This document shows, piece by piece, positions 16,112 to 31,678 of a stretch of 64,000 nt of DNA. Position 1 is the stretch's first letter; each line of letters begins with the position of its first letter. The notes under the pieces are model-generated. The model did not search any database. It saw only the letters and a list, made by a program, of their open reading frames with translations, and was not told where the DNA came from. This stretch comes from a phage: sequence record PX880099.1. The stretch is one strand, 5' to 3'. A program made the translations under genes and the position numbers.

Positions 16112-16784
16112 GTGCCAGTGCCTCCTCATAAGAAATTCGGATTTTCCCATTTTTAATATCTTCTAAAGACGCTTTATATTCTTCCCAGTTAATGCCAATA
16201 GCAGCTTCTTTCTCTTCTTTTGTCAGATTAGCAAAAGGCATAGGATTATTTCCAAAAACATCGTCTGGGTGGATATAAGCCATGATACGAAGTGGACAAG
16301 GTATTGCCTGAATACCCTGATTCAAACCAGCAGCTTTCAAACGGTGTACCCATTCAGCATCTTCAAAACCATAGCCGTGAGTGTAAGGGCGGAAATAACC
16401 CATCTTCTCAACAACGGCACGAGAATACATTGCAAATTGACACATTGCAAGTTCCCAGAGAATAACTTCTCCTTTACTCCCAACAACTTTATCTTTGAAA
16501 TACTCCGGCATACCAAAGAAATCCCATCCTCCAGAGACAGCTTGATCTACAAAATATGTTTCCCATCCCTCCATGATTGGGTAGCAATCGTCGTCAAAAA
16601 TAAACCAATAATCATAACCTTCTTCATAAAACTGGTGCATAAGTTCATTCCTGGCATAAGCTACACCTTTACGATCTGGATCGTTGAATACTCGAAAATC
16701 TGCGTGTGGATCTGTTACAAGGTAGTCTTTAAGTGGACGGACACCTACAGTGATAACACCCACTCCGATTTTAATATTTTCCAT
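16101..16784 (-). CDS. putative glycosyltransferase, GT-A-like (DxD motif)
   Basis: FIFDDDCYP acidic motif after a hydrophobic strand. Confidence 0.45.
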   Translation of the reverse strand: MENIKIGVGVITVGVRPLKDYLVTDPHADFRVFNDPDRKGVAYARNELMHQFYEEGYDYWFIFDDDCYPIMEGWETYFVDQAVSGGWDFFGMPEYFKDKVVGSKGEVILWELAMCQFAMYSRAVVEKMGYFRPYTHGYGFEDAEWVHRLKAAGLNQGIQAIPCPLRIMAYIHPDDVFGNNPMPFANLTKEEKEAAIGINWEEYKASLEDIKNGKIRISYEEALAHVK

Positions 16785-16792
16785 TTTCTCTC

Positions 16793-17356
16793 CTAAATAG
16801 TTTTACTGTGATCGTGACAGTGTAATAAATGATGTATAGACCGTTGAGGATTTGTTTGACCTAATCTGTAAATGTGAAACAGATACATTCCCCGCATCAA
16901 TCCTAACCTCTTTCCTTTTTCATGTAAAGTGCGAGAGAAAATTAAGTCGAATTGGATAGATTTTTCTTCGAAAGGAATTTCATTCCACAATGATTTTCTA
17001 AAAAGCAAAAAGAAACCTGCTAGAGGTGTTCCGAAAGGAACTTCTTCAACACTCACTTTATGATAGTCTCTTGCAACCTTAGCATATTCTATATGGTTTA
17101 GAATATCTGGATCATCGTTAATTTGGTTAGAGAAAAGCTGATAACCACTACCTAACCTGTTACAAGTTGCACCTATTACATCAAAAGGTGGGTTTGACAT
17201 AACAAGCTCTTCAAGCATAGATGGTTGATCAGGCAGGAGGAACATCGTATCGGTATCTCTTAAACACACCCAACTATCATCTGGAAGAACGGCAATAGCT
17301 TCATTGATAGCCTTGCCGATATTTCCTGTCAGATAGGGAGTAATATAATAAATCAT
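16793..17356 (-). CDS. putative glycosyltransferase-like protein
   Basis: VCLRDTDTMF DxD-like motif; adjacent to three other glycosyltransferase candidates. Confidence 0.4.
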   Translation of the reverse strand: MIYYITPYLTGNIGKAINEAIAVLPDDSWVCLRDTDTMFLLPDQPSMLEELVMSNPPFDVIGATCNRLGSGYQLFSNQINDDPDILNHIEYAKVARDYHKVSVEEVPFGTPLAGFFLLFRKSLWNEIPFEEKSIQFDLIFSRTLHEKGKRLGLMRGMYLFHIYRLGQTNPQRSIHHLLHCHDHSKTI

Positions 17357-18057: not shown

Positions 18058-18579
18058 TTAACTCCCCTTTGGTAGATAGAAACCATGCACTTTATCTCGA
18101 TAAACAAGACGCATATCACGCTCCCAGTGTGTCTTTATATTCCGCTTCTTGAAGTATAGAGCACCTTTAGTAACATCTAAAACAGACCGCAATTCAGGAA
18201 AATGTTTCTCTAAATAAAGTAAACGCTCCGCTATTGCTTTTGCTTCCTGCCACTTATCTTTCTCTGTTACGTTAAAAGTTTTCGCATATGAGAATTGCCC
18301 TTTCTGGAACAAGACTCCTCTGACTGTGTTAGGAAAGTAGGCATCATTTCTTCTATTGATTACCACATTCCCAACGGCATTCATTCCTTTTTTACCCAGA
18401 CCGCGACCTTCTGCGTAAATTGCACAAGCTAATAGAATTTTATCATTATATTGCTTTGTACATTTGTGAACTACTTTAGCGGTTTTTACGTTTGCAGCTT
18501 CGGCTTTCGCCACAACAGGTGTAAATGTAAAAGCAGTTAAGGATAGTAACGCAACTGTTACAAAGTTTTTTATCAGCAA
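18058..18579 (-). CDS. secreted cell-wall hydrolase, SleB/CwlJ family (endolysin candidate)
   Basis: TTG start after SD AGGAGG; N-terminal signal peptide; AIYAEGRG..VINR core resembles the SleB hydrolase family. Confidence 0.65.
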   Translation of the reverse strand: MLIKNFVTVALLSLTAFTFTPVVAKAEAANVKTAKVVHKCTKQYNDKILLACAIYAEGRGLGKKGMNAVGNVVINRRNDAYFPNTVRGVLFQKGQFSYAKTFNVTEKDKWQEAKAIAERLLYLEKHFPELRSVLDVTKGALYFKKRNIKTHWERDMRLVYRDKVHGFYLPKGS

Positions 18580-18678: not shown

Positions 18679-19281
18679 TTATGGACATTCATACCATTCT
18701 TTTTTACCACCGAAGGCCATCACCACATCGCAAATATCCAGACCAGCTTTACCTACACCATATGCTTTCAGTTTCCATTCCCCATCTTCACGAACCAAGG
18801 AAGCCACGTGGCAGATTGTGTTGCCAGCTACTTCAGGAGCCAGGAAGTCAAAATCCAGAATTTCCACATTGCGCTCGGAGTCGAAGATTTTAAGCATACC
18901 TTCAGAAGCATGACCAAAACGTTTCAGACCTGTATCATCATCAATGGTCAGAACAAAGGCAATCTCTTGTGCATCAGGAGAGATTTTAGCCAGAGTAATA
19001 TCAATCTGCTCCATGCTGCCAGTTCCATCACGAACATCGTCACCAGCGAAGGTAGAACGTTCAGGATCAAACTTGTTAGCATAGCAAACTAGATGACGTG
19101 CAGACAGCATTTCAGGATTGCCAGCGGCATTGTGACGACAAACCAGTGCACTTACATCCAGATCCAGTTTAGAATCAGATTTCCAAGAGAATTCCAGGCG
19201 CAGTTCTTTCAGAGCCGGAGCAACTTTCTTCAGGGAAATTTTTTCGCTAGAGCCTTTTTTCAGAGAAATTTTATCAGTCAT
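18679..19281 (-). CDS. TerD-family protein (tellurite-resistance/stress TerD domain)
   Basis: N-terminal KISLKK, LDLDVSALV and GDD..DG motifs typical of TerD; SD GGAGA before ATG. Confidence 0.75.
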   Translation of the reverse strand: MTDKISLKKGSSEKISLKKVAPALKELRLEFSWKSDSKLDLDVSALVCRHNAAGNPEMLSARHLVCYANKFDPERSTFAGDDVRDGTGSMEQIDITLAKISPDAQEIAFVLTIDDDTGLKRFGHASEGMLKIFDSERNVEILDFDFLAPEVAGNTICHVASLVREDGEWKLKAYGVGKAGLDICDVVMAFGGKKEWYECP

Positions 19282-19296
19282 CTTTTGTCTCCTCTA

Positions 19297-19566
19297 TTAT
19301 TTAAGTGTAATACCAGTTACAGTCAATTCTACTTCCAAAAGCTTAGATGTGTTTTGGATTGCTACTAATTGTGCATGATGGTTTAGTTCTACAGCAGAAT
19401 AATCATTTTCCCCATCATCTACTTTTAAATAAACAATAACTTCACTAAGGTCTAAACCATTTTCGTCAAATGCATTTTCATAGACGAAAGTATCTCCTAC
19501 ATCCAAATCTTTAATGGTAAGGCATCGTTTATTTACTTTTTGCTCATCAATTTCGAAGTTTAACAC
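19297..19566 (-). CDS. hypothetical protein, paralog of 20588-20866
   Basis: Shares GDTF..Y..A.DE.GLD and C-terminal E.EL.VT.ITLK with the paralog. Confidence 0.5.
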   Translation of the reverse strand: MLNFEIDEQKVNKRCLTIKDLDVGDTFVYENAFDENGLDLSEVIVYLKVDDGENDYSAVELNHHAQLVAIQNTSKLLEVELTVTGITLK

Positions 19567-19795
19567 TTCTTCCTCCTAATGTTATCTCCGGTTTGTATAT
19601 ACGAAGAATTATAGCATTTTCATTTTCTTTGTCAACCCATTCTTCATAATCGGGCCATACATGAATCTCTACTCTACTTACAATATCTTCCATCCGCACA
19701 GTCCCAATGAAATATTCTTTGAGACTGCGCATAATGAAAGCTTCTCTCTCGCGCCAATAATTTTCTACGACTTGAGAGGCAAGCTCGTCGATCAT
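19547..19795 (-). CDS. hypothetical protein
   Basis: 82 aa ORF in co-oriented block. Confidence 0.45.
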   Translation of the reverse strand: MIDELASQVVENYWREREAFIMRSLKEYFIGTVRMEDIVSRVEIHVWPDYEEWVDKENENAIILRIYKPEITLGGRSVKLRN

Positions 19796-20586
19796 TTTTT
19801 AGCACCTACCTTAACAACCCACTCTCCGAACTCTTCAGATAAGAGTTTGTCATAAAGCTCTGAATCTGTCAAGTCTAAATCTTTAATGCCAATAAAACCA
19901 ACATTGTCATAAGCATTTGCCAGTTCTTTCAGGAAGCTGAACTTCTCATTACCAACGCCAACCATGAACCAATAGATAGGCTTATTCTTATTCTCTTCAA
20001 TAAGACGACGAACAGCACTAGGATCACCATTCTCACCATCTGTCTGGAAGAATACAACACCAGGAGTAACGTCAGCACCTGGTTCAGATACAGCTACAAC
20101 TTTTTCACGCTCTACCGATACTGTTTCAGTTTTACCCAGCAGACGATTAAAGAAGCCTTTCTTTGGAGCCTCCTCTTGTACCACTTGTTTAGTGGTAACA
20201 TATTTGGTAACAGTGCCAAAATACTCATCGTAGATATCTGCCATTACAGGGGCGTAATTTGTTCCACCTCCGATACGAACATTACGCATACATTTACCAA
20301 CATAGTCATCGTAAACGTCTGCTGTTGCTGGAGTAAGCTCTTGAGAACTCGTATTGAAGGCCCACATGTCAATTTGTTCATTATCGTCGAACAGCATACC
20401 AAAAGGAAGCAGTTTGCCTACAAAATCACTCACTACCCCACGAGTATATAGACCATGCATACTACCAGAAATATCTAGAGCACATGCTACACGAAGAACA
20501 ATCTTACCTTCATTCAGGTTCTTATTCTTTTTCAGAGAGAAAGCAAGGTTTTCTTGACGTTTTTTCAGGCTGATTTTCTCGGACAT
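19792..20586 (-). CDS. TerD-like N-terminus plus vWA-domain protein (TerY/TerF-like)
   Basis: N-terminal KISLKK as in TerD; ALDISGSM fits a vWA MIDAS DxSxS motif. Confidence 0.55.
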   Translation of the reverse strand: MSEKISLKKRQENLAFSLKKNKNLNEGKIVLRVACALDISGSMHGLYTRGVVSDFVGKLLPFGMLFDDNEQIDMWAFNTSSQELTPATADVYDDYVGKCMRNVRIGGGTNYAPVMADIYDEYFGTVTKYVTTKQVVQEEAPKKGFFNRLLGKTETVSVEREKVVAVSEPGADVTPGVVFFQTDGENGDPSAVRRLIEENKNKPIYWFMVGVGNEKFSFLKELANAYDNVGFIGIKDLDLTDSELYDKLLSEEFGEWVVKVGAKK

Positions 20587-20587
20587 A

Positions 20588-20866
20588 TTATTTCTCCTTC
20601 TTAAGTGTAATATTGGTAACTTCTAAATCTACTTCCACCATATTTGTATCTGGTGGGATGCAATGAGTATAGCCTCGTTGTGCTAGTGATCCATTAATAC
20701 AGATCGCACTGTTTGTGGAATTTTTAATGAACACCAAGTTACGGTAGGTATCCAACCCTGCGTCTTCATAGGCATCATAATACATGAATGTGTCCCCTAT
20801 GCCAAGGTCTTCGAAAGCAATAGGTAAATCCTGACACTTTTCTTCTTGAATATTGAATCTAAACAC
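20588..20866 (-). CDS. hypothetical protein, paralog of 19297-19566
   Basis: Start set at GTG after SD GAGGAGG, giving MFRFNIQEEK parallel to MLNFEIDEQK of the paralog. Confidence 0.45.
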   Translation of the reverse strand: MFRFNIQEEKCQDLPIAFEDLGIGDTFMYYDAYEDAGLDTYRNLVFIKNSTNSAICINGSLAQRGYTHCIPPDTNMVEVDLEVTNITLKKEK

Positions 20867-21422
20867 GCATACCTCCTCTACCAATTTTGAAGCCCAAATC
20901 GTAAGCTTCCTTAGTGATCTTTTGTAACTCACTTATAGGAAGTGTTACAAGAGGATCATCTTCTTCAATTTCCATCTTGTCATCTTCTGTTTCAATGAGA
21001 GTATTATGCACTTTGTGATAAGGGTTGTCAACACGTTTAAACTTATTCTTTTCTGTGCTGAAAAAACAATCTGGATCTTCTTCACCATCACCCCAACCTT
21101 GGTTAGGATCTCCGTCAGATTGTTCTGTAGGGATTTCACCTGTAAAATACTCTTCCAGCACCATAGCGATACCGTCCCTTGGATTCGAGGAATGCATTAA
21201 ATCACAAACCTTACCCCAATCCATAGCCCATTCGAACCGTTCACGAACGCCATTTTCATTCTCCTTTCCAGAGAAAACACAACCATAACTATCATAGTTG
21301 CCATACATCTCTTCAATAACAACACCATCCTTCAAAAGAAAGAGATAGCAAGGTGATCCGTCGAAAGAAGTAGAAAGGGCAGCTTTGCCCGATTCCTTAC
21401 ACAAAAAGCTAAAACAACCCAT
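20859..21422 (-). CDS. hypothetical acidic protein
   Basis: 187 aa ORF; no family recognised. Confidence 0.5.
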   Translation of the reverse strand: MGCFSFLCKESGKAALSTSFDGSPCYLFLLKDGVVIEEMYGNYDSYGCVFSGKENENGVRERFEWAMDWGKVCDLMHSSNPRDGIAMVLEEYFTGEIPTEQSDGDPNQGWGDGEEDPDCFFSTEKNKFKRVDNPYHKVHNTLIETEDDKMEIEEDDPLVTLPISELQKITKEAYDLGFKIGRGGMRV

Positions 21423-21619
21423 TACAAACCCTCCTTCAGATTATCAAGAGCTACAGTGGTTTCACAAAATTCTCCATATGCTTTATGATGTTCTAGAAAA
21501 GCTTCAGGTCCACCCCAATCATTATCGTGTGTATTCCAACCATCAATAAAAGCATCTTCAATGATTGTGATCAGTTCCTGTCGAGTCAACGTAATGGTAT
21601 CAGGTTTTGGATTATGCAT
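21422..21619 (-). CDS. hypothetical small protein
   Basis: 65 aa; SD GAGGAG before ATG. Confidence 0.5.
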   Translation of the reverse strand: MHNPKPDTITLTRQELITIIEDAFIDGWNTHDNDWGGPEAFLEHHKAYGEFCETTVALDNLKEGL

Positions 21620-21785
21620 CTTCTTTCTCCTCTAAAATATGAAACCCATAGCTACAATAGTCCTGAAAGGTTTCGTGTGCAAGATCTTCTATATCCTCTT
21701 GAGACATATCATCTTCAATTTCGATATCCACAACCTCATTGCATCCACACCAAGCAGTTTCAATATTCACTCGTAAAGTTTTCAT
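21612..21785 (-). CDS. hypothetical small acidic protein (57 aa, below ORF-track cutoff)
   Basis: SD GAGGAAG before ATG; 8-nt overlaps with both neighbours; contains CGC..C. Confidence 0.35.
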   Translation of the reverse strand: MKTLRVNIETAWCGCNEVVDIEIEDDMSQEDIEDLAHETFQDYCSYGFHILEEKEDA

Positions 21786-21988
21786 TCTTCTTCCTCATTA
21801 AATTCCACATCAGAAATAACTTTAAATCTACCAAAGTTACGACAACCTTCATAGATATATCCATCACGACAAGCTGCAAAAATATCTGGAGTTTGTAGCT
21901 GGGTCATTGGGGCAAAGCGTTTCTCTTCGTCATAACGAACACCTATTTCTCCAGCTTGTTCGTCAAGCATGTATACACGGATTCTCAT
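21782..21988 (-). CDS. hypothetical small protein
   Basis: 68 aa; ATGA-type overlaps with neighbours. Confidence 0.45.
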   Translation of the reverse strand: MRIRVYMLDEQAGEIGVRYDEEKRFAPMTQLQTPDIFAACRDGYIYEGCRNFGRFKVISDVEFNEEEE

Positions 21989-23097
21989 TTACCCAACCCC
22001 TTCTTAACAGCGTCAACCATCCCATCTTCGAGAGATTGAACTTCATTGATGTAATCAACACGGGCAGCACGGGCTTCCGTATTGATGCGGTTAGTTTCTT
22101 CCAACATTTTAACCAAGTTTTCCTGATCGTGACGCAGAGTTTCAATATCCAACACTTGACGGTTAGCCAGTGCTGCTGCTTCGATCTGATTCTGTGTGGC
22201 AAGATCGCTACCCAGTTTAATTGCCAGGTTAAATTCATCAAGAACGTTATTCTGTGTCTCTGCGGCTTTCATTTGACGTAAGCTTTCAATATACATTGAG
22301 AAGTTAGCAGAGTAAGCAGGAATAACATTATTTACTATGTTACGCGCAGATCGCATTAAGCTTGCAGAAACTTTTTGCATACCTTGCACACGTGGTCCCA
22401 TTTGGACACACAGTAGGCGCAATGCTTTTAAATCCGCAATACGAATCTCCAGAAGATCCAAGGTATCTCGGATCGCTTGTCGCTGTTCTACCGCATCTTC
22501 TGGAAGAGCAGCCAAAGCTTGTTCTTCTTTTTCATAGGTCGCTGTTAGAAGCTGCATATCTCGGTTCAAACTTGCAGCATATTGTCCAATAGCTTGATGT
22601 AGCTTTTCAAGGTATACCAAAGAATCTTCTTCTTTGCGAATATCCATTTGAAGGTTCTTTACCAACTCTTCAATACGGTTATTAACATTATCAAACTCCC
22701 CAAACAGATCTTCTTTCATACCCATAACTTTTTTAATGAGTTTAGTAATACCTTTGCTTTGTTTAATAGAGTTTGGATCAAGTTGTTTTGCCTGTTTAAT
22801 CAAAGCTGTGAGTCGTTCACTCATCTGATCGCCTTGATTACTACGTTGATGTTTTAATACCTCGGCATTCAAGGAACGCAAGGTTGTTCCTGCCTCTGCC
22901 CCGATCTCTTCGATCTCTTGTCGTGTCATAGAAGGCAAAACTGGGACTTCTTGCGGTGCGGCTGGTGCATAAACAGGACTGGCATCTAACACGCTTGGAG
23001 CAAATACAGATTTACTTGCATCTGTTGTTGCAGTGAATACACTCATTTCAGACTTCTTCTGACCACCAGTAGCTGCTTTTAAAAACGGACTTGTCAT
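21985..23097 (-). CDS. TelA-like toxic-anion-resistance protein
   Basis: 370 aa, long predicted coiled-coil, overall resemblance to TelA/KlaA; sits between TerD-like and TerC genes. Confidence 0.65.
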   Translation of the reverse strand: MTSPFLKAATGGQKKSEMSVFTATTDASKSVFAPSVLDASPVYAPAAPQEVPVLPSMTRQEIEEIGAEAGTTLRSLNAEVLKHQRSNQGDQMSERLTALIKQAKQLDPNSIKQSKGITKLIKKVMGMKEDLFGEFDNVNNRIEELVKNLQMDIRKEEDSLVYLEKLHQAIGQYAASLNRDMQLLTATYEKEEQALAALPEDAVEQRQAIRDTLDLLEIRIADLKALRLLCVQMGPRVQGMQKVSASLMRSARNIVNNVIPAYSANFSMYIESLRQMKAAETQNNVLDEFNLAIKLGSDLATQNQIEAAALANRQVLDIETLRHDQENLVKMLEETNRINTEARAARVDYINEVQSLEDGMVDAVKKGLGK

Positions 23098-23684
23098 TCT
23101 TCATTCTCCTCTTCTGCATCTCTTATGTATGGTGAAACACCGTATTCTTTAGCTACTTTAACCCAATCGTCCCATTTATACAACCATAATTTTCCTTCTG
23201 TTCCTTCTTTATCTGATTTTAACCACATATTAGGTTGCTTACCTGGATACATGCGATTAGGTTTACGATTATAACCTCTAATACATCTTGTCGCAAACCT
23301 ATCTACCAGAACAAGAACATATTTATATTCGTGGTTCAACGGCTCTTTGGAAGTAGCTTTAGGGTTTGCCCCTAATTCTGCTGCCAGTTTTTGCCAATGA
23401 GCACCGTGCCGACTAAACTTACCCATACAACCATCAATAGCATGAGCAATTTCGTGCTTCATTGTATCCACGATCATATCTCTTGTAGAGTTCTTATGCA
23501 AGTGCCAATTTACAACAACAATTTTATCTCGGTAGTTGCACCAACCGAAAGAGTTATTCACTTTGTTTCTAACGCAAGCTTTATATCCTGCTTCACGTAA
23601 CATGTTGTAGTAAACAGGAAAATCTTCTTTTATTTCCTGCATCACTTCCCACCACAAGAGTTGCAAGTCTCTCTCGGTATACAT
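23094..23684 (-). CDS. SprT-like zinc metallopeptidase domain protein
   Basis: HEIAHAID (HExxH) with downstream His/Cys-containing segment. Confidence 0.5.
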   Translation of the reverse strand: MYTERDLQLLWWEVMQEIKEDFPVYYNMLREAGYKACVRNKVNNSFGWCNYRDKIVVVNWHLHKNSTRDMIVDTMKHEIAHAIDGCMGKFSRHGAHWQKLAAELGANPKATSKEPLNHEYKYVLVLVDRFATRCIRGYNRKPNRMYPGKQPNMWLKSDKEGTEGKLWLYKWDDWVKVAKEYGVSPYIRDAEEENEE

Positions 23685-23687
23685 AAC

Positions 23688-24281
23688 TTACACCTTAAAA
23701 GTGAAATGCGTGGTCGTGGCTTCAAAATCAGGGCCAGATAAACGTGCACTGAAATCTGAAATATTTGTAATTAAAAAGCTTTTATGCATACCTAACACAG
23801 CCACGCTTTCAATATCTTCTACTAACATTTCAATCATGTTAGAAACATGGCTGAACGTAGTGTTTTGTTTTTTGATGGTGTAGAAAGAAAGATTCCCACC
23901 TGCTGTATAAGATACTTCTTCAAAATCTTTAATCGTATACTGTGTCCCATCAGTAAAGAAAATGGTAGCTTTATTAGTAGCACGTTTCTTGTTTTTTGGT
24001 CCTTTTTTACGTTTACTGCGAGTAGGAAAACCATTTGGGAATACCGTAGCTACAAATTCTTCAGGAGAAACCTCCTTACCGAAATCATAACCATAAGAAA
24101 CAGCATCTATAAACTCATCGTCCTCATTTTTAAAATAATGAAAATAGGGCCAATTTGACAGATTATCAAGCATCTTATGCTCATCCACAGCAGAGAACGT
24201 ATCCCTCAAAGCACGTGTGATTTGCAAAGCATTAGGCAACCTTTTAACACCTACGATGGAAGTACGAATAGAAATTGTCAT
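23688..24281 (-). CDS. hypothetical protein
   Basis: 197 aa with basic KRKKGPKNKKR patch. Confidence 0.5.
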   Translation of the reverse strand: MTISIRTSIVGVKRLPNALQITRALRDTFSAVDEHKMLDNLSNWPYFHYFKNEDDEFIDAVSYGYDFGKEVSPEEFVATVFPNGFPTRSKRKKGPKNKKRATNKATIFFTDGTQYTIKDFEEVSYTAGGNLSFYTIKKQNTTFSHVSNMIEMLVEDIESVAVLGMHKSFLITNISDFSARLSGPDFEATTTHFTFKV

Positions 24282-24295
24282 TATTTTTCTCCTTA

Positions 24296-24733
24296 TTAAC
24301 GTCGCTTGCTACGAGATGAACTCTTTTTACTTAAAGGGCTATTGTAAGATTTACGAGTTGTATAGCTGCTATTTGTTTTAAAAGTTTGTCTCGGCTTTTC
24401 ATAAGTTTTTATCTCTTGTTTAGGCTTACCATAAAAATTAGTTTTCGGTTTAGGTGTGTTATAATGTTTATTAATAATCGTTCTGTTATCGTTATAATCC
24501 CCGCCGCTACGATTACTGCCACCGCTCATCATATGTCCTAACAACATACCTGTAGCAAACTCACCAACACCGCTACTACTAGAACCGCCACCATTGTTGA
24601 TAATAGTTGTATCTCCGTCAGATCCTTGTTGAGCGTATTGTTGAGGAGGTTGTTGATATTGTGTAGGATTTGTTTCATCCTCGCAAGCTGTTAAAAAGAT
24701 ACAACCAATTAAAATCAGGGCTAGTTTTTTCAT
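24296..24733 (-). CDS. putative lipoprotein, Gly/Ser/Gln-rich with basic C-terminal tail
   Basis: Start set at ATG after SD GAGGAAAG; signal peptide ending in lipobox LTAC. Confidence 0.55.
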   Translation of the reverse strand: MKKLALILIGCIFLTACEDETNPTQYQQPPQQYAQQGSDGDTTIINNGGGSSSSGVGEFATGMLLGHMMSGGSNRSGGDYNDNRTIINKHYNTPKPKTNFYGKPKQEIKTYEKPRQTFKTNSSYTTRKSYNSPLSKKSSSRSKRR

Positions 24734-24920
24734 ATTTGCTTTCCTCGTTTTGACTATTAATACATCTGTGTTTGAAATCTCCAGAGAAGCAATAAAGCTG
24801 CTCTCCATCTCGGTATAAACTCACTTTACTGCCGTTGATTACGCTTGTCAATACAAAAATTACAACAAACAACCCTATTGCAAAACAAATATTTTCAAAC
24901 ACAACCAACAAGTATTTCAT
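24675..24920 (-). CDS. small membrane protein overlapping the lipoprotein gene start
   Basis: One predicted N-terminal TM helix; ATGA overlap with upstream gene; 59-nt out-of-frame overlap with lipoprotein gene. Confidence 0.4.
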   Translation of the reverse strand: MKYLLVVFENICFAIGLFVVIFVLTSVINGSKVSLYRDGEQLYCFSGDFKHRCINSQNEESKYEKTSPDFNWLYLFNSLRG

Positions 24921-25267
24921 TTTAAAAATACCTCATCATCAGTTTCATTATCCCAGAAGAACAAATCCCAACCATTAGGATCATTCCACTTGGCGGCTGG
25001 AGAAGTCCAGATTTGTTCGATATCAATATTCAAAACTTCGCCGTTTCGTTTTGAAACAGCCTTGGTTAATTCCCAACGAGATACAGGTTCTACCTCTCCT
25101 GAACCACTTCCACAACAAACTACTACGTTAGGAGGAAGGTTAATTGGATCTTTGGTCACAATCATAACGCTTACCCCAGGGTAAACTTTTGAAAGATAAT
25201 CTGAAACGTAATCAACATCACCAGGTAAATCCCAAACAAGTTTTTGAATTTCATCAAAATTGCTCAT
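24917..25267 (-). CDS. hypothetical protein
   Basis: 116 aa; first gene after the TerC terminator. Confidence 0.5.
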   Translation of the reverse strand: MSNFDEIQKLVWDLPGDVDYVSDYLSKVYPGVSVMIVTKDPINLPPNVVVCCGSGSGEVEPVSRWELTKAVSKRNGEVLNIDIEQIWTSPAAKWNDPNGWDLFFWDNETDDEVFLK

Positions 25268-25269
25268 AA

Positions 25270-25296
25270 GTCTCTCCTATAAAATAGCCTCCCGAA
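25270..25296 (-). terminator. rho-independent terminator after TerC gene
   Basis: AGCCTCC-cgaa-GGAGGCT hairpin followed on - strand by ATTTTAT. Confidence 0.55.
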
Positions 25297-25309
25297 GGAG
25301 GCTCATCTA

Positions 25310-26284
25310 TTAAACAGCAGCTTCTTCTTTTTCAGGGAAGATAAAGCTTGCAATAACGCCAAGAGCTAATGTGCCTAGAACAATCATCAGACTTACGTTA
25401 GGGGAAATATCATGCGGGAGGAATGACCACTTGGCATGAAGTGTTTCACCGAACGGGTGATACATAAGTTTAGCACCAACAAACACCAGAACCACAGCAA
25501 CAGCTTTCTCTAAGTGAACCAAATATTTCACAGCTACACTTAACACAAAGAAAAGTGCACGTAAACCAAGAACAGCCATCAGCATTGCAGAATAAACTAG
25601 CAGAGGTTCTTGTGTCACACCGATCACAGCCGGAACTGAATCAAAAGAGAAGACAATATCTGTAAGCTCAATAACAAACACACAAAGAAGAGCAGGAGTT
25701 GCATATTTAATACCATTCTTAATGGTAATGAACTTTTCACCATCCAGTGCATTGTGCACAGGCAGGATTTTACCTACTAAACGAACAGCCCAATGTTTAG
25801 AGTAATCGATATCCTCTTCTTCATCACCACCTTTGATGATAGCCACGGCAGACCAAGCTACAATCAAACCGAACAACACTTGGACCGACCAATGAAGGTT
25901 AAACAGAGCGGTGCCTGCTGCAACAAAAATACCTCGGAAGACAATGGCTCCTGCAATCCCCCAAAGTAAAATCTTATGTTGGAGATGTGTGCTCTTAATT
26001 CCAAAGCTTGCAAAAATTGCCATGAACACCATTAGGTTATCTACAGAAAGACTCTTTTCCAACACATAGCCACTTAGGAAAAGCGCGGCAAACTCTTTAC
26101 CATGTTCTACCCAAATGAATGCGTAATATCCTAAAGCTAAAGCAATCCAAAAAACAGACCAAAGCAAAGCAGATTTAATTCCAATTTCTTTATTCTCTTT
26201 ATGACCAAAGAAATCGATACCAATAGACAATGCTAAAATACCAACTAAAACAACTACATCAATGATTGGGAAACCAAGTTGCAT
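25310..26284 (-). CDS. TerC-family integral membrane protein
   Basis: Multiple TM helices; signature LSVDNLMVF; SD AAGGAG before ATG. Confidence 0.8.
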   Translation of the reverse strand: MQLGFPIIDVVVLVGILALSIGIDFFGHKENKEIGIKSALLWSVFWIALALGYYAFIWVEHGKEFAALFLSGYVLEKSLSVDNLMVFMAIFASFGIKSTHLQHKILLWGIAGAIVFRGIFVAAGTALFNLHWSVQVLFGLIVAWSAVAIIKGGDEEEDIDYSKHWAVRLVGKILPVHNALDGEKFITIKNGIKYATPALLCVFVIELTDIVFSFDSVPAVIGVTQEPLLVYSAMLMAVLGLRALFFVLSVAVKYLVHLEKAVAVVLVFVGAKLMYHPFGETLHAKWSFLPHDISPNVSLMIVLGTLALGVIASFIFPEKEEAAV

Positions 26285-26303
26285 TATTTTCTCCTTTCTC
26301 TTT

Positions 26304-26362
26304 GCGGGGAACCACTCCCCGCCTCATGTGATACATCTTACTCTTTTTTAAAACCTTGTCAA
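26304..26362 (-). promoter_or_regulatory. promoter plus 5' stem-loop cassette (same type as the 48-59 kb array) driving TerC
   Basis: On - strand TTGACA-16 bp-TAAGAT-GTATCAC then GGCGGGGA-gtgg-TTCCCCGC hairpin, then SD and ATG. Confidence 0.6.
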
Positions 26363-26365
26363 CAC

Positions 26366-26587
26366 TTATTTTGAAGAACTGGAGGAAAAGATTCCACGCA
26401 GCACTGCCATAATGAACGCTACGCACACCACGGTCCAGAATGTAACAGGAACAGTGATATCTGTGTGACCCATCATTTCAACAACGTAGTTGTAAGCCAG
26501 CAGCAGAAGCCACGCTGGAATCATACTGATCAGGAAAGCCAGAACAAACACGATAACTACTGCCAGAACACCTGCAACAACACCCAT
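26366..26587 (-). CDS. small membrane protein (two TM helices)
   Basis: 73 aa, strongly hydrophobic. Confidence 0.5.
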   Translation of the reverse strand: MGVVAGVLAVVIVFVLAFLISMIPAWLLLLAYNYVVEMMGHTDITVPVTFWTVVCVAFIMAVLRGIFSSSSSK

Positions 26588-26600
26588 ATTATTTCTCCTC

Positions 26601-27083
26601 TTAAAGTTTATAAATAGTCACATCGTGACCTGCTTTTACTAAAGTTTCTTCAATCATCACTTCAATGATAGCCCAATTACCTCCTGCCAACCCTGCTCCA
26701 ATCATAGGTAAACCAATCTTATGTTCGGCAGATGTGTTCACCCATTTGTGGAGATCCTTTGCCATAGCCTCAAGAGCATCATACAGGGCATCATAGTCCA
26801 ACTGACGACCTTTACCGTTATACCCGTAACGGTACTGTCCGTATAGGTTATAAACCAGTGGGTCAGACACCTCCTCCGGCACCCCTAAACTAAAAGAACC
26901 CAGCTTACTTTGATCACCTGCGGCTGTGTCCAAGTCGGCTGCATATGCATAAGGAAATGCTCGTTTAATTTGCGGAGCAATCCCTGCACCCATATTACAC
27001 ATACAGTTACAACAGTGGGCTATAACGTTCACTTCCCCGTTCTTCGCTGCATCGATCAGATTCCCAGTAACAACCTTCAACAT
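26601..27083 (-). CDS. macro-domain protein (ADP-ribose binding/processing)
   Basis: GNLIDA..VNVIAHCCNC..GAGIA resembles the macro-domain N-terminal core. Confidence 0.65.
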   Translation of the reverse strand: MLKVVTGNLIDAAKNGEVNVIAHCCNCMCNMGAGIAPQIKRAFPYAYAADLDTAAGDQSKLGSFSLGVPEEVSDPLVYNLYGQYRYGYNGKGRQLDYDALYDALEAMAKDLHKWVNTSAEHKIGLPMIGAGLAGGNWAIIEVMIEETLVKAGHDVTIYKL

Positions 27084-27092
27084 TTTTCCTCC

Positions 27093-27920
27093 TTACAGAA
27101 TATGTTGTTTTGTGTAACGATCCAAGAACTCAAAGTTTTCAGTATACTTTGCAATTCGATTGTAGCCTTCAGCTAAACAGCCGAAGAAAAGTTGTTCCAC
27201 ATAGTAGTGTGGCAATTGGCTAAGAATGATTTTGAAGTCTTCATGATTTTGGCCCATAAGGTACTTAATAGGACGAACAAGACACTGTGCATCACGTTCT
27301 TCATTAATCATTTTAACAAACGCTTCTGGTGTATTAATATAGTTAAAATTCAGCTTAGCTTCGGTATCTGCTTGATTACCTTCATATTTTGCAAAATACA
27401 AGAAGTAAACATCATTTTTAACTTGATTTTCATCAAGAATCTCAATCAGTTTGTCTTCATGAGTTCCAGTGATATTTACATCATCAATGAACACAAGCTT
27501 CTTATCACCCCAGAATTCTTTGTTGCAGTAGAATGTATCCCCATCAATAAGTTTCTTACGACTAGCTTTATCTAAGAAACCATAATCGTTGATATAGCTA
27601 ACTTTACGATGAATAATATCCAGTTCTGCTGAACGACCTTGATCATATTGTGCTTGCAACATATTAAAGTAATTAATAAAATGATCTGTCATCATTGTTG
27701 CAGCATTATGCACATGGTTATAAGGAGAAGGAATGATAACAAATTGTTCCCCAATATGTTTCATTGCCACTTGAGCAAAAAACTGAAGTGCCAATTCTTT
27801 ACCCATACGACGCGCAGCTTGGTTACTGCCAAATTTCAATTTTGAATAATCTTTGATATCAAAAGTAGCAGTTTCCAGGTCATCAAATTTATTTGCAAAA
27901 ATTTGAGTTTGATTACGCAT
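27093..27920 (-). CDS. phosphoribosyltransferase (PRTase)-like protein
   Basis: KLVFIDDVNITGTHE fits the PRTase PRPP-binding motif (hydrophobic-DD-x-x-TG-x-T). Confidence 0.55.
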   Translation of the reverse strand: MRNQTQIFANKFDDLETATFDIKDYSKLKFGSNQAARRMGKELALQFFAQVAMKHIGEQFVIIPSPYNHVHNAATMMTDHFINYFNMLQAQYDQGRSAELDIIHRKVSYINDYGFLDKASRKKLIDGDTFYCNKEFWGDKKLVFIDDVNITGTHEDKLIEILDENQVKNDVYFLYFAKYEGNQADTEAKLNFNYINTPEAFVKMINEERDAQCLVRPIKYLMGQNHEDFKIILSQLPHYYVEQLFFGCLAEGYNRIAKYTENFEFLDRYTKQHIL

Positions 27921-28569
27921 TTACAATTTCTCCTCTTTTAAGTTTCTCTAGTAAGTCGTTAGGGTTCTTAATATGACAGAAGTTAATCCCTATGTCAACA
28001 CATTTTCCATCAAATTCTTCGCTGTCCCCAACATGTAAAATCTCTTCAGCCTTCAAAGGAATGCTTGAATATGTGGCGGTCCTAACAAAGAATCTAGGAT
28101 CTGGTTTACACAACAGATGTTCGTCTGAAAAATGCATAAATTCAAAACAATTCCAACTGTCAAACATACAAGCACGACGCAAAATATCCCCAGATATGAA
28201 ATTAGTATTGCTTTTAATACTAAGATCATATTTACCAGACAAGTATAGCAAACAAACTGGCAAATCTAAAGCAATATGTGGAGGAAATTTAAGAAACCAT
28301 TGTTCACACTCAAAACGCATTTGTGCAGATTCTACAGGGGTTAAACCTATCTTTCTTCCCAACATGTTCCATGCATATGCTACGCCTTCTGCACACCCAT
28401 TTAGTGCAGCATTATCCATAATTTCTTTGGCATCTTTATATGCTTCTTTTGCCGCACGTTCAGACATTCTACCATATGTAGCAATAGTGTGCGTACGTGC
28501 ATCTGCATAGTTTTGATTGGCAGAAATAAGAGTATTCCATACATCAAAAGAAATATGTTTTATTGTCAT
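27913..28569 (-). CDS. HAD-superfamily hydrolase-like protein
   Basis: ISFDVWNTL (motif I-like), LCKPDPRFF and HVGDSEEFD (motifs III/IV-like); start set at MTIKH. Confidence 0.5.
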   Translation of the reverse strand: MTIKHISFDVWNTLISANQNYADARTHTIATYGRMSERAAKEAYKDAKEIMDNAALNGCAEGVAYAWNMLGRKIGLTPVESAQMRFECEQWFLKFPPHIALDLPVCLLYLSGKYDLSIKSNTNFISGDILRRACMFDSWNCFEFMHFSDEHLLCKPDPRFFVRTATYSSIPLKAEEILHVGDSEEFDGKCVDIGINFCHIKNPNDLLEKLKRGEIVNA

Positions 28570-28570
28570 A

Positions 28571-29176
28571 CTAGGCCCACCACGCATCAAGATTTAAGTT
28601 ACTGTCTACCACAACTTGTTCTATGTGGTAGCCTTTTATCTGTATCCCACTGTTCAAGAGCATATCATATGCTTCATTGAAACGCAACTTATCTTCTGCG
28701 GAATATAAGCGAGCATTGTAAAATCGGTAATCAAGTTCTTCAGCATTAGAAGAAATACGGAAGAAGTTTGTTTCTACTTCAGGATCACTTGCTGAAGTTT
28801 TAATGTGAACTTCTCCGTAATTTTCTTTGCTTAGATCCATGAAAAGAACACAGGCAACATGTTTAAACATTCGTTCCAGTTTGTAACGAACAACATTGAA
28901 ACCTGCGTTCTCAAGTTTTTCTACACATTGCAACATTAACGTAGTGTCGAGATCGCTTTGATACTTTGTTAACATACGATCACGTTGAGACTTTGTATCC
29001 CGATGTAAATCAATTGTTGTGCATTTGGCACCAATGATCTTAGCTGCTTTCATCAACTCTTCAGAACTAACGTTAGATAAAGTAAGATGAAAATGGGCTT
29101 TCCACACTTTTTTAGCAGGGACACCAAAAGATTTATCCCCACTATTCGGCATGTTGACTACTACACTATGTTGCAT
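28571..29176 (-). CDS. hypothetical protein
   Basis: 201 aa; HFHLTL resembles one H-x-T-x motif of 2H phosphoesterases but the second motif is unclear. Confidence 0.45.
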   Translation of the reverse strand: MQHSVVVNMPNSGDKSFGVPAKKVWKAHFHLTLSNVSSEELMKAAKIIGAKCTTIDLHRDTKSQRDRMLTKYQSDLDTTLMLQCVEKLENAGFNVVRYKLERMFKHVACVLFMDLSKENYGEVHIKTSASDPEVETNFFRISSNAEELDYRFYNARLYSAEDKLRFNEAYDMLLNSGIQIKGYHIEQVVVDSNLNLDAWWA

Positions 29177-29191: not shown

Positions 29192-29416
29192 TTAAAATGG
29201 AAGTCTTTGAAGTTCATCTCCTCCGATATCAAGTAATTTAGCAACATCTCGATCAGAAAGCAACTCTTTTCTTTGTAAAATATCCACAAGGGTTGCAAGA
29301 ATGTCCTTAACGTCCCGATCACTGTTCTTCAAAAGTTCTCCTGCCGTCCCTACCCTATCTCCTACAGCAAAATATGTAACCATAAAACCTCCTACGCTAA
29401 TCTGATTGCCAACCAC
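29192..29416 (-). CDS. hypothetical small protein
   Basis: 74 aa ORF overlapping nrdG start region. Confidence 0.4.
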   Translation of the reverse strand: MVGNQISVGGFMVTYFAVGDRVGTAGELLKNSDRDVKDILATLVDILQRKELLSDRDVAKLLDIGGDELQRLPF

Positions 29417-29867
29417 TCGCCGTTTTGGTCCATAATCTTTGATTATCTGACCCTCTGAAAGGTTTTGTGGTTGGATTGTTTATTTCATACTTTCCGTCTA
29501 CAATAATGTCAACAAGATTTTTAATATACAAAGGCACTTCCTCAAAAGTATATCCTGTATACACCATTATATCTTTGCTTGACCCATAAACGTCTCTAAC
29601 CTTTTCTATAAGGTTTTTAACATTGTAAATATTCTGCGGATCTAATGGTTCTCCTCCTAAAATTGTTAAACCTTTTACAAACGGTCTTGACAAATCTTTT
29701 AAAACTTGCTCTACATTTTCGTTAGTGAACGGTTTCCCATAAGAATAAGACCAGGCTTTCTGGTTAAAACAGCCACGACAACCGTGGCTACAACCACTAA
29801 CCCAGAGGGAGCACCTAACTCCCTCACCATTAATAAGATCTACAGGTTCATATCCTGCAAAATTCAA
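29397..29867 (-). CDS. nrdG: anaerobic ribonucleotide reductase activating protein (radical SAM)
   Basis: CSHGCRGC radical-SAM-type cysteine motif; immediately downstream of nrdD with 4-nt overlap. Confidence 0.85.
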   Translation of the reverse strand: MNFAGYEPVDLINGEGVRCSLWVSGCSHGCRGCFNQKAWSYSYGKPFTNENVEQVLKDLSRPFVKGLTILGGEPLDPQNIYNVKNLIEKVRDVYGSSKDIMVYTGYTFEEVPLYIKNLVDIIVDGKYEINNPTTKPFRGSDNQRLWTKTASGWQSD

Positions 29868-31678
29868 AGATGTTTCTCCCTTTGCAAAACTTCCTGCATT
29901 TTACCTTTGTTATAAGGCCGTGAATTAGGGGCAGAAAGATACCCTGATACACGTCTAACTACAGAAATAGTTTCTTCTTCATGGTTGCCACAATTAGGAC
30001 ACTCAAACCCTTTAGCCGTTGCCTTAAATTCTCCATGAAAACCACACTTAAAGCATTGATCCACGGGCTGATTAATACCAAAATAGTGAATATGTTCATA
30101 AGCGTAGTCTACTAAAGTCTCCAAAGCTTCTAAGTTATTCTTTAAGTTTGGTGTTTCGACATAACTTATGTTACCACCATTGCTAATCTGTGCAAAACCT
30201 GCTTCATAATCCCATTTTTCAAAAGGATTTGTTACCAACCATACAGGTTGATGAAAAGAATTAGTAAGATAGTCTCTTTCTACCAGACCTGGATATTTTT
30301 CATTTAAAGCTGTTGCAAATTTATAGCACAAGGATTCTGCTGGAGTTCCATAAAGACTAAATGCCAACTTAGATCGTTCTTTAAACACAGCACACACATC
30401 TTTCATATGTTGCAGAATGTTTTTACCTAGTTCCTTTTTATCTTTTTCCTCTGGATAAAGGATTTCCAAAGCTTCGGCAAGACCTACATAACCAATACTA
30501 ATAGAAGCATAACCACCTTCAAACAAAGCACCAATTTCATCGTTGGCATTTAAACGCGCTAAAGCCCCTTCCATGAAAAGAATAGGGTTTTCAGATGCTT
30601 TGGTATGTCTGATACGGTTTACACGTAGCATGTGAGCATCGTAGGCTATCTCCATATGTTTATTAAGAAGATCGGTGAAAGATTCTCCTTTACTTCTCGC
30701 TTCCGCAGCAATCAGAGGCAAGTTGATAGAAACTACTCCAAGGTTGAATCGTCCATCATATTTTTCTCCTTGTTCGGTGGCATAGTACGACAAAAAGGAA
30801 CGACAACCCATACTCGTAACGGTACCATCTGCTGATCCCGTAACTTCTTTGTTCAAAGGAACAGAAATAAAATCTGGATAAATACGATCAGCACAACATG
30901 CCAAAGCTTGTTGCTTAAGGTCGTAGTTAGGATCACTAGGTTTCATGTTAACACCTTCTTGTAAAAAGAAAATAACTTTAGGGAATACAGGCGTTACATG
31001 ATCTTTACCTAGACCGTTACTATGCACTTTAAGATAGTTAGCTGTGATCATTCTGCCAAAAACAGAGGTATCCAGACCCATACTGATTGTAATAAAAGGA
31101 GATTGTCCATTAACACTCATTAAAGTGTTAACCTGATACAAAAGAGTTTGCATAGCGTCATATACATCTTGTTCGGTCATTTCTAGGGCTTCTTTCCTTG
31201 CATAACAACCGTAGCGACGTTTGGTTATCTCCATGTTTTTAAGGAAACTGGCTTCAACATAAGGACTAAGACCTTTATCAATGTGCGCACACGTCTGACC
31301 TCCATACTGACTGGAGGCAACAGCTTGGATGATTTGAGTTAGCACTGTAGTAGCTACTCCAATAGATTTTGGTTTTTCTATCTGTGCAGCACCGATCTTA
31401 AAACCATTCTCTAACATATCTTGATAATTAACAAGACAACAGTTTGTAAGAGGAGAGAGCAGATAATCCAAGTCGTGAATATGTCCAAAACCTTCTGTAT
31501 GCCATTCTGACAAGTTTTTTGGCAGTATCTGTGTCATTGCCATATGTTTGCTTAAAATCCCCGCCAAGAGATCCCTGTGCGTGTTAACAAGGTGGGAAGG
31601 TTTGTTTGCATTCTCTCTAGTGTATGTTTCTGAAGTGCGATCTAAAAAAGAAAAAACATCTTGGTACAAATCTTTCAT
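29864..31678 (-). CDS. nrdD: anaerobic ribonucleoside-triphosphate reductase
   Basis: 604 aa; C-terminal CFKCG..CPNCG zinc ribbon and glycyl-radical motif RRVSGYL. Confidence 0.9.
   Translation of the reverse strand: MKDLYQDVFSFLDRTSETYTRENANKPSHLVNTHRDLLAGILSKHMAMTQILPKNLSEWHTEGFGHIHDLDYLLSPLTNCCLVNYQDMLENGFKIGAAQIEKPKSIGVATTVLTQIIQAVASSQYGGQTCAHIDKGLSPYVEASFLKNMEITKRRYGCYARKEALEMTEQDVYDAMQTLLYQVNTLMSVNGQSPFITISMGLDTSVFGRMITANYLKVHSNGLGKDHVTPVFPKVIFFLQEGVNMKPSDPNYDLKQQALACCADRIYPDFISVPLNKEVTGSADGTVTSMGCRSFLSYYATEQGEKYDGRFNLGVVSINLPLIAAEARSKGESFTDLLNKHMEIAYDAHMLRVNRIRHTKASENPILFMEGALARLNANDEIGALFEGGYASISIGYVGLAEALEILYPEEKDKKELGKNILQHMKDVCAVFKERSKLAFSLYGTPAESLCYKFATALNEKYPGLVERDYLTNSFHQPVWLVTNPFEKWDYEAGFAQISNGGNISYVETPNLKNNLEALETLVDYAYEHIHYFGINQPVDQCFKCGFHGEFKATAKGFECPNCGNHEEETISVVRRVSGYLSAPNSRPYNKGKMQEVLQREKHL

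Follow-up and report, generated by a model that had tools for sequence, protein, structure and literature searches.

The Ter block of a Phapecoctavirus genome

A 64,000-nucleotide stretch of phage DNA (record PX880099.1; this whole stretch is referred to below as the window) carries, at positions 18679 to 28590, a block of genes related to the tellurite-resistance (Ter) genes of bacteria. An initial annotation had placed eight genes on the minus strand of this block, namely, a TerD-family protein, a vWA protein with a TerD-like N terminus, a TelA-like protein, a TerC-family membrane protein, a small membrane protein, a macro domain protein, a phosphoribosyltransferase (PRTase)-like protein, and a HAD-like hydrolase. 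When the corresponding profile hidden Markov model searches were run, they supported all eight assignments (Table 1). Over its full length, the block shared 95 to 98% identity with more than 60 Phapecoctavirus genomes (phAPEC8, ESCO13, ZCKP1, Schickermooser, SF1-1, and others), and the phi92-like phages of the genus Justusliebigvirus were its more distant kin. The source is a virulent Escherichia coli phage of the phAPEC8/phi92 group, genus Phapecoctavirus. Its genome is about 150 kb, and it is therefore not a jumbo phage. Every gene of the block is encoded on the minus strand, inside a long leftward gene array.

The comparisons showed a conserved accessory block of the subfamily Stephanstirmvirinae that consists of three separable layers. 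First, there is a Ter core made up of TerC/Alx, TelA, a vWA-TerF-like protein, and TerD. Second, there is a two-gene enzyme pair in which a HAD gene of the DxWxT subfamily lies directly upstream of a PRTase_3 gene. Third, there are lineage-specific passengers, which include the macro domain protein, an SprT-like protease, a small membrane protein, a membrane protein/lipoprotein pair, and small open reading frames (ORFs). The genes for HAD, PRTase_3, macro, the 73-amino-acid (aa) membrane protein, TerC, the membrane protein/lipoprotein pair, TelA, the 187-aa protein (g187), one small paralogue, vWA, and TerD are common to the Phapecoctavirus block and phi92 in the same order, with 47 to 81% aa identity, and SprT-like, g201, g116, g82, g89, g68, and g57 are without a counterpart at the phi92 locus. 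Against SF1-1, dN/dS was 0 for TerD and HAD, 0.018 for TerC, 0.046 for PRTase_3, 0.053 for TelA, and 0.069 for vWA, and was 0.061 and 0.046, respectively, for the SprT-like and 187-aa proteins. By this measure the Ter core and the HAD-PRTase_3 pair are under strong purifying selection and are clearly being maintained in the phage.

The TerD match to Pfam PF02342 (E = 3e-28) reached 98.9 bits against a cut-off of 25.3, and the protein aligned with Klebsiella pneumoniae TerD (PDB 2kxt) at an E value of 1.5e-15. Among the listed Phapecoctavirus isolates its sequence was 100% identical (65 records reached 99% or more), and it had zero non-synonymous differences from SF1-1. TerC matched the NCBIfam TerC/Alx model TIGR03718 at E = 3e-95 (319 bits against a curated cut-off of 246) and showed 48 to 52% identity to TerC/Alx proteins of bacteria along its entire length. 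TelA was 79% identical to phi92 gp178; more distant relatives (22 to 28% identity) were found in Caulobacter, Brevundimonas, phiPsa374-like, RaK2-like, and G17-like phages. A MIDAS motif, D-I-S-G-S, is visible in the translation of the vWA-TerF-like protein. This protein and TerD begin with the same sequence, SEKISLKK, which resembles the first TerD strand, and the TerD-like N terminus ascribed to the vWA protein was thus right.

However, this is not the complete copy of the Ter repertoire that had been claimed but a reduced core, with a single TerD and without TerB, whose biosynthetic part amounts to two genes. The scans of the block covered 11 longer proteins by Pfam, a subset of these also by NCBIfam and PADLOC, and eight further ORFs by PHROGs only, with four small ORFs left out; within this scope, neither TerB nor a further TerD was found, nor was any biosynthetic gene (ATP-grasp or other) beyond PRTase and HAD. 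The authors of the ZCKP1 study likewise counted four ter-related genes (PMC6141743).

Table 1. Genes and sequence features of the Ter block and its flanks, in order of position in the window
Feature	Position	Strand	Remarks
Endolysin gene	18058-18579	-	Downstream of TerD in leftward array
GC hairpin, GAAA loop	18641-18660	-	Just after TerD stop; -17.2 kcal/mol, z -2.4
TerD-domain protein, 200 aa	18679-19281	-	Last gene of block
89-aa paralogue	19297-19566	-	Directly upstream of TerD; phrog_11278
Perfect sigma-70 consensus, TTGACA-16-TATAAT with TG	19635-19608	-	Inside 82-aa ORF, ~40 nt before 89-aa ORF start/TerD
vWA-TerF-like protein, 264 aa	19792-20586	-	Pfam PF10138, E 3e-37
92-aa protein	20588-20866	-	Directly upstream of vWA gene; phrog_11278; paralogue of the 19297-19566 ORF
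187-aa conserved protein (g187)	20859-21422	-	Between TelA and vWA; phrog_14928; 76% identical to phi92 gp175
TelA-family coiled-coil protein, 370 aa	21985-23097	-	Pfam PF05816, E 2e-33
SprT-like zinc metalloprotease	23094-23684	-	HEIAH motif; Pfam SprT-like, E 4e-9
197-aa protein	23688-24281	-	phrog_27550; no Pfam match; partly conserved in phi92
Predicted lipoprotein, 145 aa	24296-24733	-	Signal peptide, lipobox LTAC; translation MKKLALILIGCIFLTAC...; 438 nt in SF1-1
81-aa protein	24675-24920	-	N-terminal transmembrane helix (translation); 49% identical to phi92 gp181
Terminator-like GC hairpin	25286-25303	-	UUCG loop, then AUUUUAU; 6 nt after TerC stop
TerC/Alx-family integral membrane protein, 324 aa	25310-26284	-	Pfam PF03741, E 4e-40
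Stable leader hairpin	26322-26304	-	Upstream of TerC; -14.3 kcal/mol, z -3.3
Sigma-70-like promoter, TTGACA-16-TAAGAT	26362-26335	-	Upstream of TerC; 10/12 hexamer matches
73-aa predicted small membrane protein	26366-26587	-	Two hydrophobic stretches in translation; phrog_16065
Stand-alone macro domain, 160 aa	26601-27083	-	TARG1/SCO6735/DarG-macro class
PRTase_3 ("ComF-like") type I PRTase, 275 aa	27093-27920	-	Pfam PF15610, E 2e-41
HAD-superfamily hydrolase, DxWxT subfamily, 218 aa	27913-28569	-	Directly upstream of PRTase_3
201-aa lineage-specific protein (g201)	28571-29176	-	Abuts HAD start; outside the initially annotated block; absent from phi92
NrdG	29397-29867	-	Ribonucleotide reductase gene at array start
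NrdD	29864-31678	-	Ribonucleotide reductase gene at array start; single uninterrupted 604-aa ORF

The HAD-PRTase_3 pair and its linkage to Ter genes

The family and position given at first for the HAD hydrolase hold, except that its likely start is the ATG at 28569, as annotated in SF1-1, and not the TTG at 28590. The protein, 100% identical in aa sequence to that of SF1-1, fell below the Pfam cut-off and gave partial HAD-IA matches in NCBIfam, and a profile of nine members of the family matched Pyrococcus horikoshii PH0253 (PDB 2om6) at E = 5e-23, the two having the motif FDVWNTL in common. Residues D9, W11, T13, S120, K155, G181, D182, and D187 were invariant. The nucleophile (D9) is kept, and motifs II (S120), III (K155), and IV (G181-D182 and D187) are present. 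Motif I, DxDx(T/V), is not, since a Trp stands at the Asp+2 position (FDVWNT) in nine of nine family members and in 2om6. Judged from these motifs, the HAD is not a canonical phosphatase.

The start of the PRTase_3 gene overlaps the HAD stop by 8 nt. Its phosphoribosyl pyrophosphate (PRPP) loop, DDVxITGTH (from D146-D147), was invariant in 36 sequences, and the AlphaFold2 model (pLDDT 93.3) has a type I PRTase core followed by a C-terminal helical domain. A search of the PDB with the sequence gave no match. In Foldseek, the model reached a probability of 1.0 to HGPRT, ComF, and PyrR (E of about 3e-6 to HGPRT/HGXPRT; TMq of 0.43 to Helicobacter pylori ComF), and the solved folds nearest to the predicted structure were those of 6-oxopurine PRTases, H. 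pylori ComF, and PyrR. The label orotate PRTase that some GenBank records carry is unsupported, because there was no PDB sequence match and the nearest folds are the 6-oxopurine PRTases and ComF.

The pair was then traced through 44 loci with a PRTase_3 relative, collected by tblastn, by a search of proteins, and by scans of viral contigs and of genomes. A HAD gene lay immediately upstream of PRTase_3 in all of them (44 out of 44), mostly overlapping it. TerC, TelA, vWA, or TerD genes lay within 10 kb of the pair in 8 of the 20 phage loci outside the Stephanstirmvirinae, and the order of the genes varied; for example, TerC-x-TerD-x-vWA-HAD-PRTase, TelA-vWA ... HAD-PRTase-TerD, and TerC-vWA-TerD-TerD-TelA-HAD-PRTase were all found. 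TelA and PRTase_3 each occurred in less than 0.5% of 50,697 phage records. That two such rare genes recur linked, in rearranged order, in unrelated phages argues for a functional tie between the pair and the Ter core. The 311- to 402-aa proteins in two metagenomic Ter loci (L005 and L006) gave no TelA match in Pfam.

Cellular copies of this PRTase_3 clade were almost exclusively found in Rhizobiaceae in a scan that took one genome per species and required two strictly conserved motifs, and that would miss more divergent relatives. No conserved neighbours beyond the pair itself were seen in the Rhizobiaceae loci, where the GC content is high and ORF calling was noisy. An origin from enterobacterial Ter plasmids was considered and set aside, since tblastn gave PRTase_3 relatives only on Rhizobiaceae plasmids and one Hymenobacter plasmid. 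In one locus on a Sinorhizobium garamanticum plasmid (L008; NZ_CP120375.1, 150506 to 169285), the pair has a glycosyltransferase/radical SAM pair on one side and genes for a UbiA prenyltransferase, a GMC oxidoreductase, an NAD-dependent epimerase, and an SMR transporter on the other. This gene set recalls a PRPP-using polyprenyl-phospho-sugar pathway, and the context was not conserved at the other Rhizobiaceae loci. A PRTase_3 99% identical to that of the window was also present in a contig binned as a "Proteobacteria bacterium" metagenome-assembled genome (L030; JAEZZU010000022.1), a binning that looks doubtful.

The macro domain had been counted as a third member of a PRTase/HAD/macro biosynthetic set. 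The link of PRTase and HAD to the Ter genes stands, but the macro domain has no conserved place in that set. It adjoins PRTase_3 only in the Stephanstirmvirinae loci and lies 6 to 8 kb from the pair in two others. Its Pfam score was borderline (22.8 bits against a cut-off of 22), but it matched solved structures clearly, namely, SCO6735 (5e3b; E = 3e-13), BT1257, Thermus aquaticus DarG (5m31), and TARG1. The PADLOC DarG model matched at E = 5e-12 over positions 1 to 144 of 329, i.e., its macro part only. The protein fails DarG membership because it lacks the C-terminal domain and scored 42.7 bits against the NCBIfam equivalog cut-off of 250; there was also no DarT nearby. Nor is it Atd1, the anti-TIR factor reported in these genera, which is a MazG-like protein encoded elsewhere. 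On this sequence evidence, the macro domain is best placed in the TARG1/SCO6735 class and treated as a lineage-specific ADP-ribose-processing passenger, possibly with a role in counter-defence, rather than as a part of the biosynthetic set.

Proposed function and its alternatives

Ter clusters are widespread among pathogens and plasmids and have been associated with resistance to phages and colicins, yet their function has been a puzzle since the 1970s and no mechanism for them is known. Phage Ter systems, and ter genes in this very lineage, are already published, and the present points refine a published idea. The study of phage ZCKP1 (2018) reported ter genes in this lineage together with an idea about superinfection and colicins (PMC6141743), and there are matching annotations in the GenBank records of phi92, ESCO13, and others. 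Iyer, Anantharaman, Krishnan, Burroughs, and Aravind (2021) described a Ter system, "relatively complete" and having PRTases and HAD, in Acinetobacter phage vB_AbaM_ME3 and abbreviated TerD/TerC/TerF/TelA operons in Caulobacter jumbo phages, mentioned "certain other related smaller tailed phages," and proposed that such systems serve in competition with superinfecting phages (superinfection exclusion) and in support of pseudolysogeny (PMC7824862). The function suggested in the initial annotation, a membrane-stress or metabolite-signalling system for the use of the phage itself, for example in counter-defence or envelope stabilisation, is in essence the hypothesis of these two papers. Its reference to the bacterial Ter literature, in which PRTase and HAD enzymes are predicted to make a nucleoside-like metabolite, was correct.

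Several known systems resemble the phage block in part. The bacterial terZABCDEF/telA clusters (IncHI2 plasmid R478, E. coli O157 islands, K. pneumoniae pK2044) share TerD, TerC, the vWA-TerF-like protein, and TelA with it and, as far as they are described in papers that cite Anantharaman, Iyer, and Aravind (2012), are alike also in the linked PRTase and HAD and in membrane association; PF15610 itself was, by the same description, defined from bacterial Ter neighbourhoods. The phage block differs from these clusters in having no TerB, no TerA/Z/E series, and a single TerD, in being borne by a virulent phage, and in having two genes where the bacterial biosynthetic operon is described with 14. 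It also differs from the enterobacterial Ter plasmids, in which tblastn found no PRTase_3 homologue. The phage Ter systems of Iyer et al. are alike in concept and core families; compared with ME3, in which no PRTase_3 relative was detected, the present block has a contiguous pair and core with the macro domain attached. The phiPsa374-like Pseudomonas phages and Klebsiella phage phiKp34 are virulent and have the same terC/terD/terF-vWA/telA core, the role of which is noted as unknown, and their TelA is 21 to 23% identical to that of the window, but their gene order is unlike that of this block and no PRTase_3 relative was detected in them. In Bacillus subtilis, the envelope-stress operon yceCDEFGH encodes TerD-like YceCDE, TerC-like YceF, and TelA-like YceH, which is a similarly compact combination of TerD, TerC, and TelA tied to envelope stress. 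Unlike the phage block, it is chromosomal, is regulated by stress sigma factors, and has neither vWA nor PRTase and HAD. Finally, the PRTase anti-phage systems (ShosTA, retron type III, Ophion with radical SAM, PHP, and PRTase) pair a type I PRTase and an enzyme of the phosphoesterase type within a short mobile cassette and are similar in bringing nucleotide-pool chemistry into the phage-host conflict. In the block, however, there was no sequence match to the PADLOC models of these systems, the partner is a HAD and not a PHP protein or antitoxin, and the genes are phage-borne rather than anti-phage.

Taken by analogy with the bacterial clusters, the block may be read as follows: the Ter core would protect the inner membrane of the infected cell, and the HAD-PRTase_3 pair would add a PRPP-derived molecule. 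This reading is tentative, with a probability of roughly 0.4. Host RNA polymerase would probably transcribe the block within the long leftward early/middle array, perhaps with punctuation behind both TerC and TerD. At the inner membrane, the Ter core would then come together and make the cell refractory to membrane insults, such as DNA entry by competitor phages, pore-forming colicins, and membrane-depolarising abortive-infection effectors, so that the protected cell would remain productive up to the time of programmed lysis. From PRPP, the pair would produce a ribosylated small molecule, nucleotide- or nucleoside-like, that might modulate the Ter core or act beside it, and the macro domain would more likely provide a separate ADP-ribose-removing activity than take part in this pathway. 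The membrane role is suggested by three things: the resistance of bacteria with ter genes to phages and colicins, the fact that TerC is a membrane protein, and the further envelope proteins that the block encodes. Plasmid R478 blocks phages T1, T5, T7, and lambda. For the IncHI2 ter cluster, phage inhibition and resistance to pore-forming colicins are attributed to Whelan (1995) by the papers that cite it (PMC8386662, PMC9796965). Phapecoctavirus and Justusliebigvirus have also turned up as "persistent virulent phages" in 55 assemblies of bacterial isolates (10.1101/2024.12.31.630880), and protection of the carrier cell would fit such a lifestyle without proving such a role.

A number of findings weigh against membrane protection aided by a PRPP-derived molecule. 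First, the invariant Trp of the HAD replaces the Asp+2 acid/base of HAD phosphatases; therefore, the textbook scheme in which the PRTase makes a nucleotide that the HAD dephosphorylates to a nucleoside is plausible but not secure. Second, PADLOC-DB 2.0, which includes TerY-P, gave zero matches at E of 0.01 or less for TerD, vWA, TelA, TerC, PRTase_3, and HAD, and the scans of the block found no TerB, a domain to which membrane-surveillance defence systems have now been linked. Third, the calcium-binding motif of TerD, read by eye from the alignment with 2kxt, is kept only in part. Fourth, the literature on phage Ter genes yielded no experiment for any of them. Fifth, the pair occurs without Ter genes in Rhizobium phages, in other phage contigs, and at 14 Rhizobiaceae plasmid and chromosomal loci, and in Xanthomonas phage XaC1 it is accompanied at most by a weak TerD-like match about 165 kb away, which means that the pair does not need the Ter core. 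Finally, the genes around the pair fit a role in the nucleotide pool equally well. In this phage the pair follows the ribonucleotide reductase genes; in the metagenomic phage contig L006 it lies 4.5 kb downstream of ribonucleotide reductase, beyond the Ter genes, with genes for a PnuC-type nicotinamide mononucleotide (NMN) transporter and a NadR-like AAA_28 protein around it. In Rhizobium phage RHph_TM30 (L004; 1 to 13980), it lies among dihydrofolate reductase, NMN adenylyltransferase (NMNAT)/Nudix, and adenylosuccinate synthetase (PurA)-like genes, and in XaC1, thymidine kinase, Nudix, and glutaredoxin genes are in the same region. The contexts in RHph_TM30 and L006 hint at a link of the pair with pyridine or purine nucleotide metabolism.

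These contexts raise the alternative that the PRTase, HAD, and macro genes form a nucleotide-metabolism and counter-defence repertoire with no functional tie to the Ter genes. In such a repertoire the PRTase would salvage or divert bases via PRPP, the HAD would trim the product, and the macro domain would strip the ADP-ribose that DarT and other host toxins attach to the DNA, RNA, or proteins of the phage. Consistent with this, the pair keeps company with nucleotide genes in the phages just named and is without Ter genes in many loci, the PRTase model is nearest to 6-oxopurine salvage PRTases, the macro domain matches ADP-ribosyl hydrolases of the DarG/TARG1/SCO6735 class, and PRTases are recurrent anti-phage effectors, as in ShosTA, retron type III, and Ophion (10.1101/2025.09.30.679545). 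However, chance can hardly account for the embedding of the pair among Ter genes, which was seen in at least seven phage lineages that are unrelated. For nucleotide supply, it would be futile to have a hydrolase act after a salvage PRTase, a HAD with Trp at Asp+2 is no canonical nucleotidase, and the macro domain is without the C-terminal domain of DarG and far below its cut-off. A repertoire independent of the Ter genes appears unlikely.

A different explanation starts from TerC and takes the block to be a metal or ion homeostasis set, in which TerC/Alx would export Mn2+ or a related cation and TerD would buffer Ca2+. Instead of excluding competitors, it would adjust metal and ion levels within the infected cell, for example to protect or supply phage enzymes. 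TerC belongs to the "metal homeostasis" subfamily, TerC/Alx, with about 50% identity to its bacterial members. E. coli Alx is reported as an Mn2+ exporter (PMC10197570), terC of K. pneumoniae contributes to zinc resistance (PMC12054061), and in gut jumbo phages, terD genes with high transcription occur together with a Ca2+ ATPase (PMC12880540). In addition, TerD aligns with the Ca2+-binding TerD of K. pneumoniae, and the ribonucleotide reductase genes are directly upstream of the block. On the other hand, metal homeostasis leaves TelA, vWA, and the PRTase/HAD pair unexplained, and the E. coli host already has an Alx of its own. A yybP-ykoY Mn riboswitch often precedes bacterial TerC/Alx genes. 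Such a riboswitch is absent here: an Rfam scan of the whole 64-kb window found no riboswitch and no other Rfam family, and upstream of TerC there is only a short leader hairpin. Export and buffering of metal ions as the purpose of the whole block would be an improbable explanation.

A bolder form of the membrane reading would make the pair an autonomous mobile two-enzyme cassette whose ribosylated product switches on the phage Ter membrane complex and so shields the cell. This is a long shot. If it were true, the shield would be messenger-gated and run by the virus against rival phages, colicins, and membrane-targeting suicide defences, and the long-sought ligand and output of the bacterial Ter systems would be revealed.

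The value of the locus lies in being a compact and genetically tractable entry to the unsolved function of Ter systems. This phage lineage carries a minimal version, with four core proteins and a two-enzyme pair, and it is found in virulent coliphages that plate on E. coli K-12 (such as the Phapecoctavirus phages nieznany and anhysbys and the Justusliebigvirus phages EmilieFrey and JohannJBalmer), a host that to our knowledge has no ter operon of its own; clean genetics and biochemistry are therefore feasible. The points added here are that the pair is obligate yet separable from the Ter core, that its HAD is not a canonical phosphatase, and that the macro domain is a passenger.

Transcription signals, passengers, and neighbouring genes

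The block had been thought to have its own cassette promoter and terminators. A single cassette of this kind was rejected on three grounds. Promoter-like sites numbered 46, compared to 40.7 in shuffled sequences, and terminator-like sites 13, compared to 9.5, so there was no enrichment. The HAD gene follows the upstream NrdD/NrdG/g74/g201 genes without a gap. Moreover, a hairpin after TerC splits the block; its folding energy was -17 kcal/mol (z -3.95), and 0 of 200 shuffles folded as well. This hairpin probably divides the block into a unit from Nrd to TerC and a unit from g116 to TerD. The hairpin after TerD abuts a promoter-like site (18640 to 18612) of the endolysin gene. The perfect consensus at 19635 to 19608 was the sole match of its kind in the window, and because at least one such match occurred in 21% of shuffles, it is not significant on its own.

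A further alternative is that the block is a mosaic of independently acquired accessory genes without a joint function, their proximity reflecting the packing of non-essential genes into one arm of the genome. The hairpins after TerC and TerD, which probably split transcription, and the unenriched promoter and terminator scan are in line with a mosaic, as is the fact that several block genes (SprT-like, g201, g116, g82, g89, g68, and g57) come and go by lineage. The Ter core and the pair, however, stay syntenic across genera, are under strong purifying selection, and recur together in shuffled order in unrelated phages. A mosaic appears very unlikely.

Among the passengers, the SprT-like protease, which the initial annotation did not mention, is a lineage-specific insertion that is present in loci L012 and L029 and absent from the phi92 locus. 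The 73-aa membrane protein was 63% identical to its phi92 counterpart, and the 187-aa protein had no Pfam or PDB match. The 89- and 92-aa paralogues matched each other in BLASTP at E = 8e-15 with 33% identity. Each directly precedes a gene whose product starts with SEKISLKK (TerD and vWA, respectively), and phi92 has one copy only; the arrangement looks like a duplicated two-gene unit or a set of dedicated partners.

The 3′ end of the 81-aa gene overlaps the lipoprotein gene out of frame. The mature part of the lipoprotein is rich in G, S, N, P, and K, and its phi92 homologue, gp180, has a predicted signal peptide. In their arrangement the two genes (24296 to 24920) are reminiscent of i-spanin and o-spanin genes of the overlapped type. 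They are located within the Ter block, with about 6 kb between them and the endolysin gene, and are kept in phi92 (gp181/gp180).

The 201-aa protein next to the HAD matched two PADLOC "AbiEi" models over its full length (E = 5e-13 and 4e-12) and had no Pfam match. Its AlphaFold2 model (pLDDT 82.5) shows a tandem ferredoxin-like fold with only generic fold matches, and residues H28/H30/T32 and H124/K126/T127 were invariant. It might be an anti-defence gene.

Farther along the array, downstream of the endolysin gene, there are four consecutive glycosyltransferase genes on the minus strand (15164 to 17356). The ZCKP1 paper suggested that such phages alter host surface polysaccharides and thereby block superinfection (PMC6141743), and these genes near the Ter block would be a second candidate exclusion function. 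At the other end, the NrdD gene of the phi92 record (L002, 6218 to 8296) is annotated as two pieces with a "spliced variant," suggesting an intervening sequence.

Lastly, several GenBank records are labelled as Campylobacter, Acinetobacter, or Pseudomonas phages, and these host labels look doubtful. Proteins encoded by B15 (MG065650), ABPW7 (OP562383), and PsgM04F (OR584014) were 91 to 100% identical to those of E. coli Justusliebigvirus relatives, and proteins encoded by C3 (MG065656) and A145 (MG065645) were identical to them.

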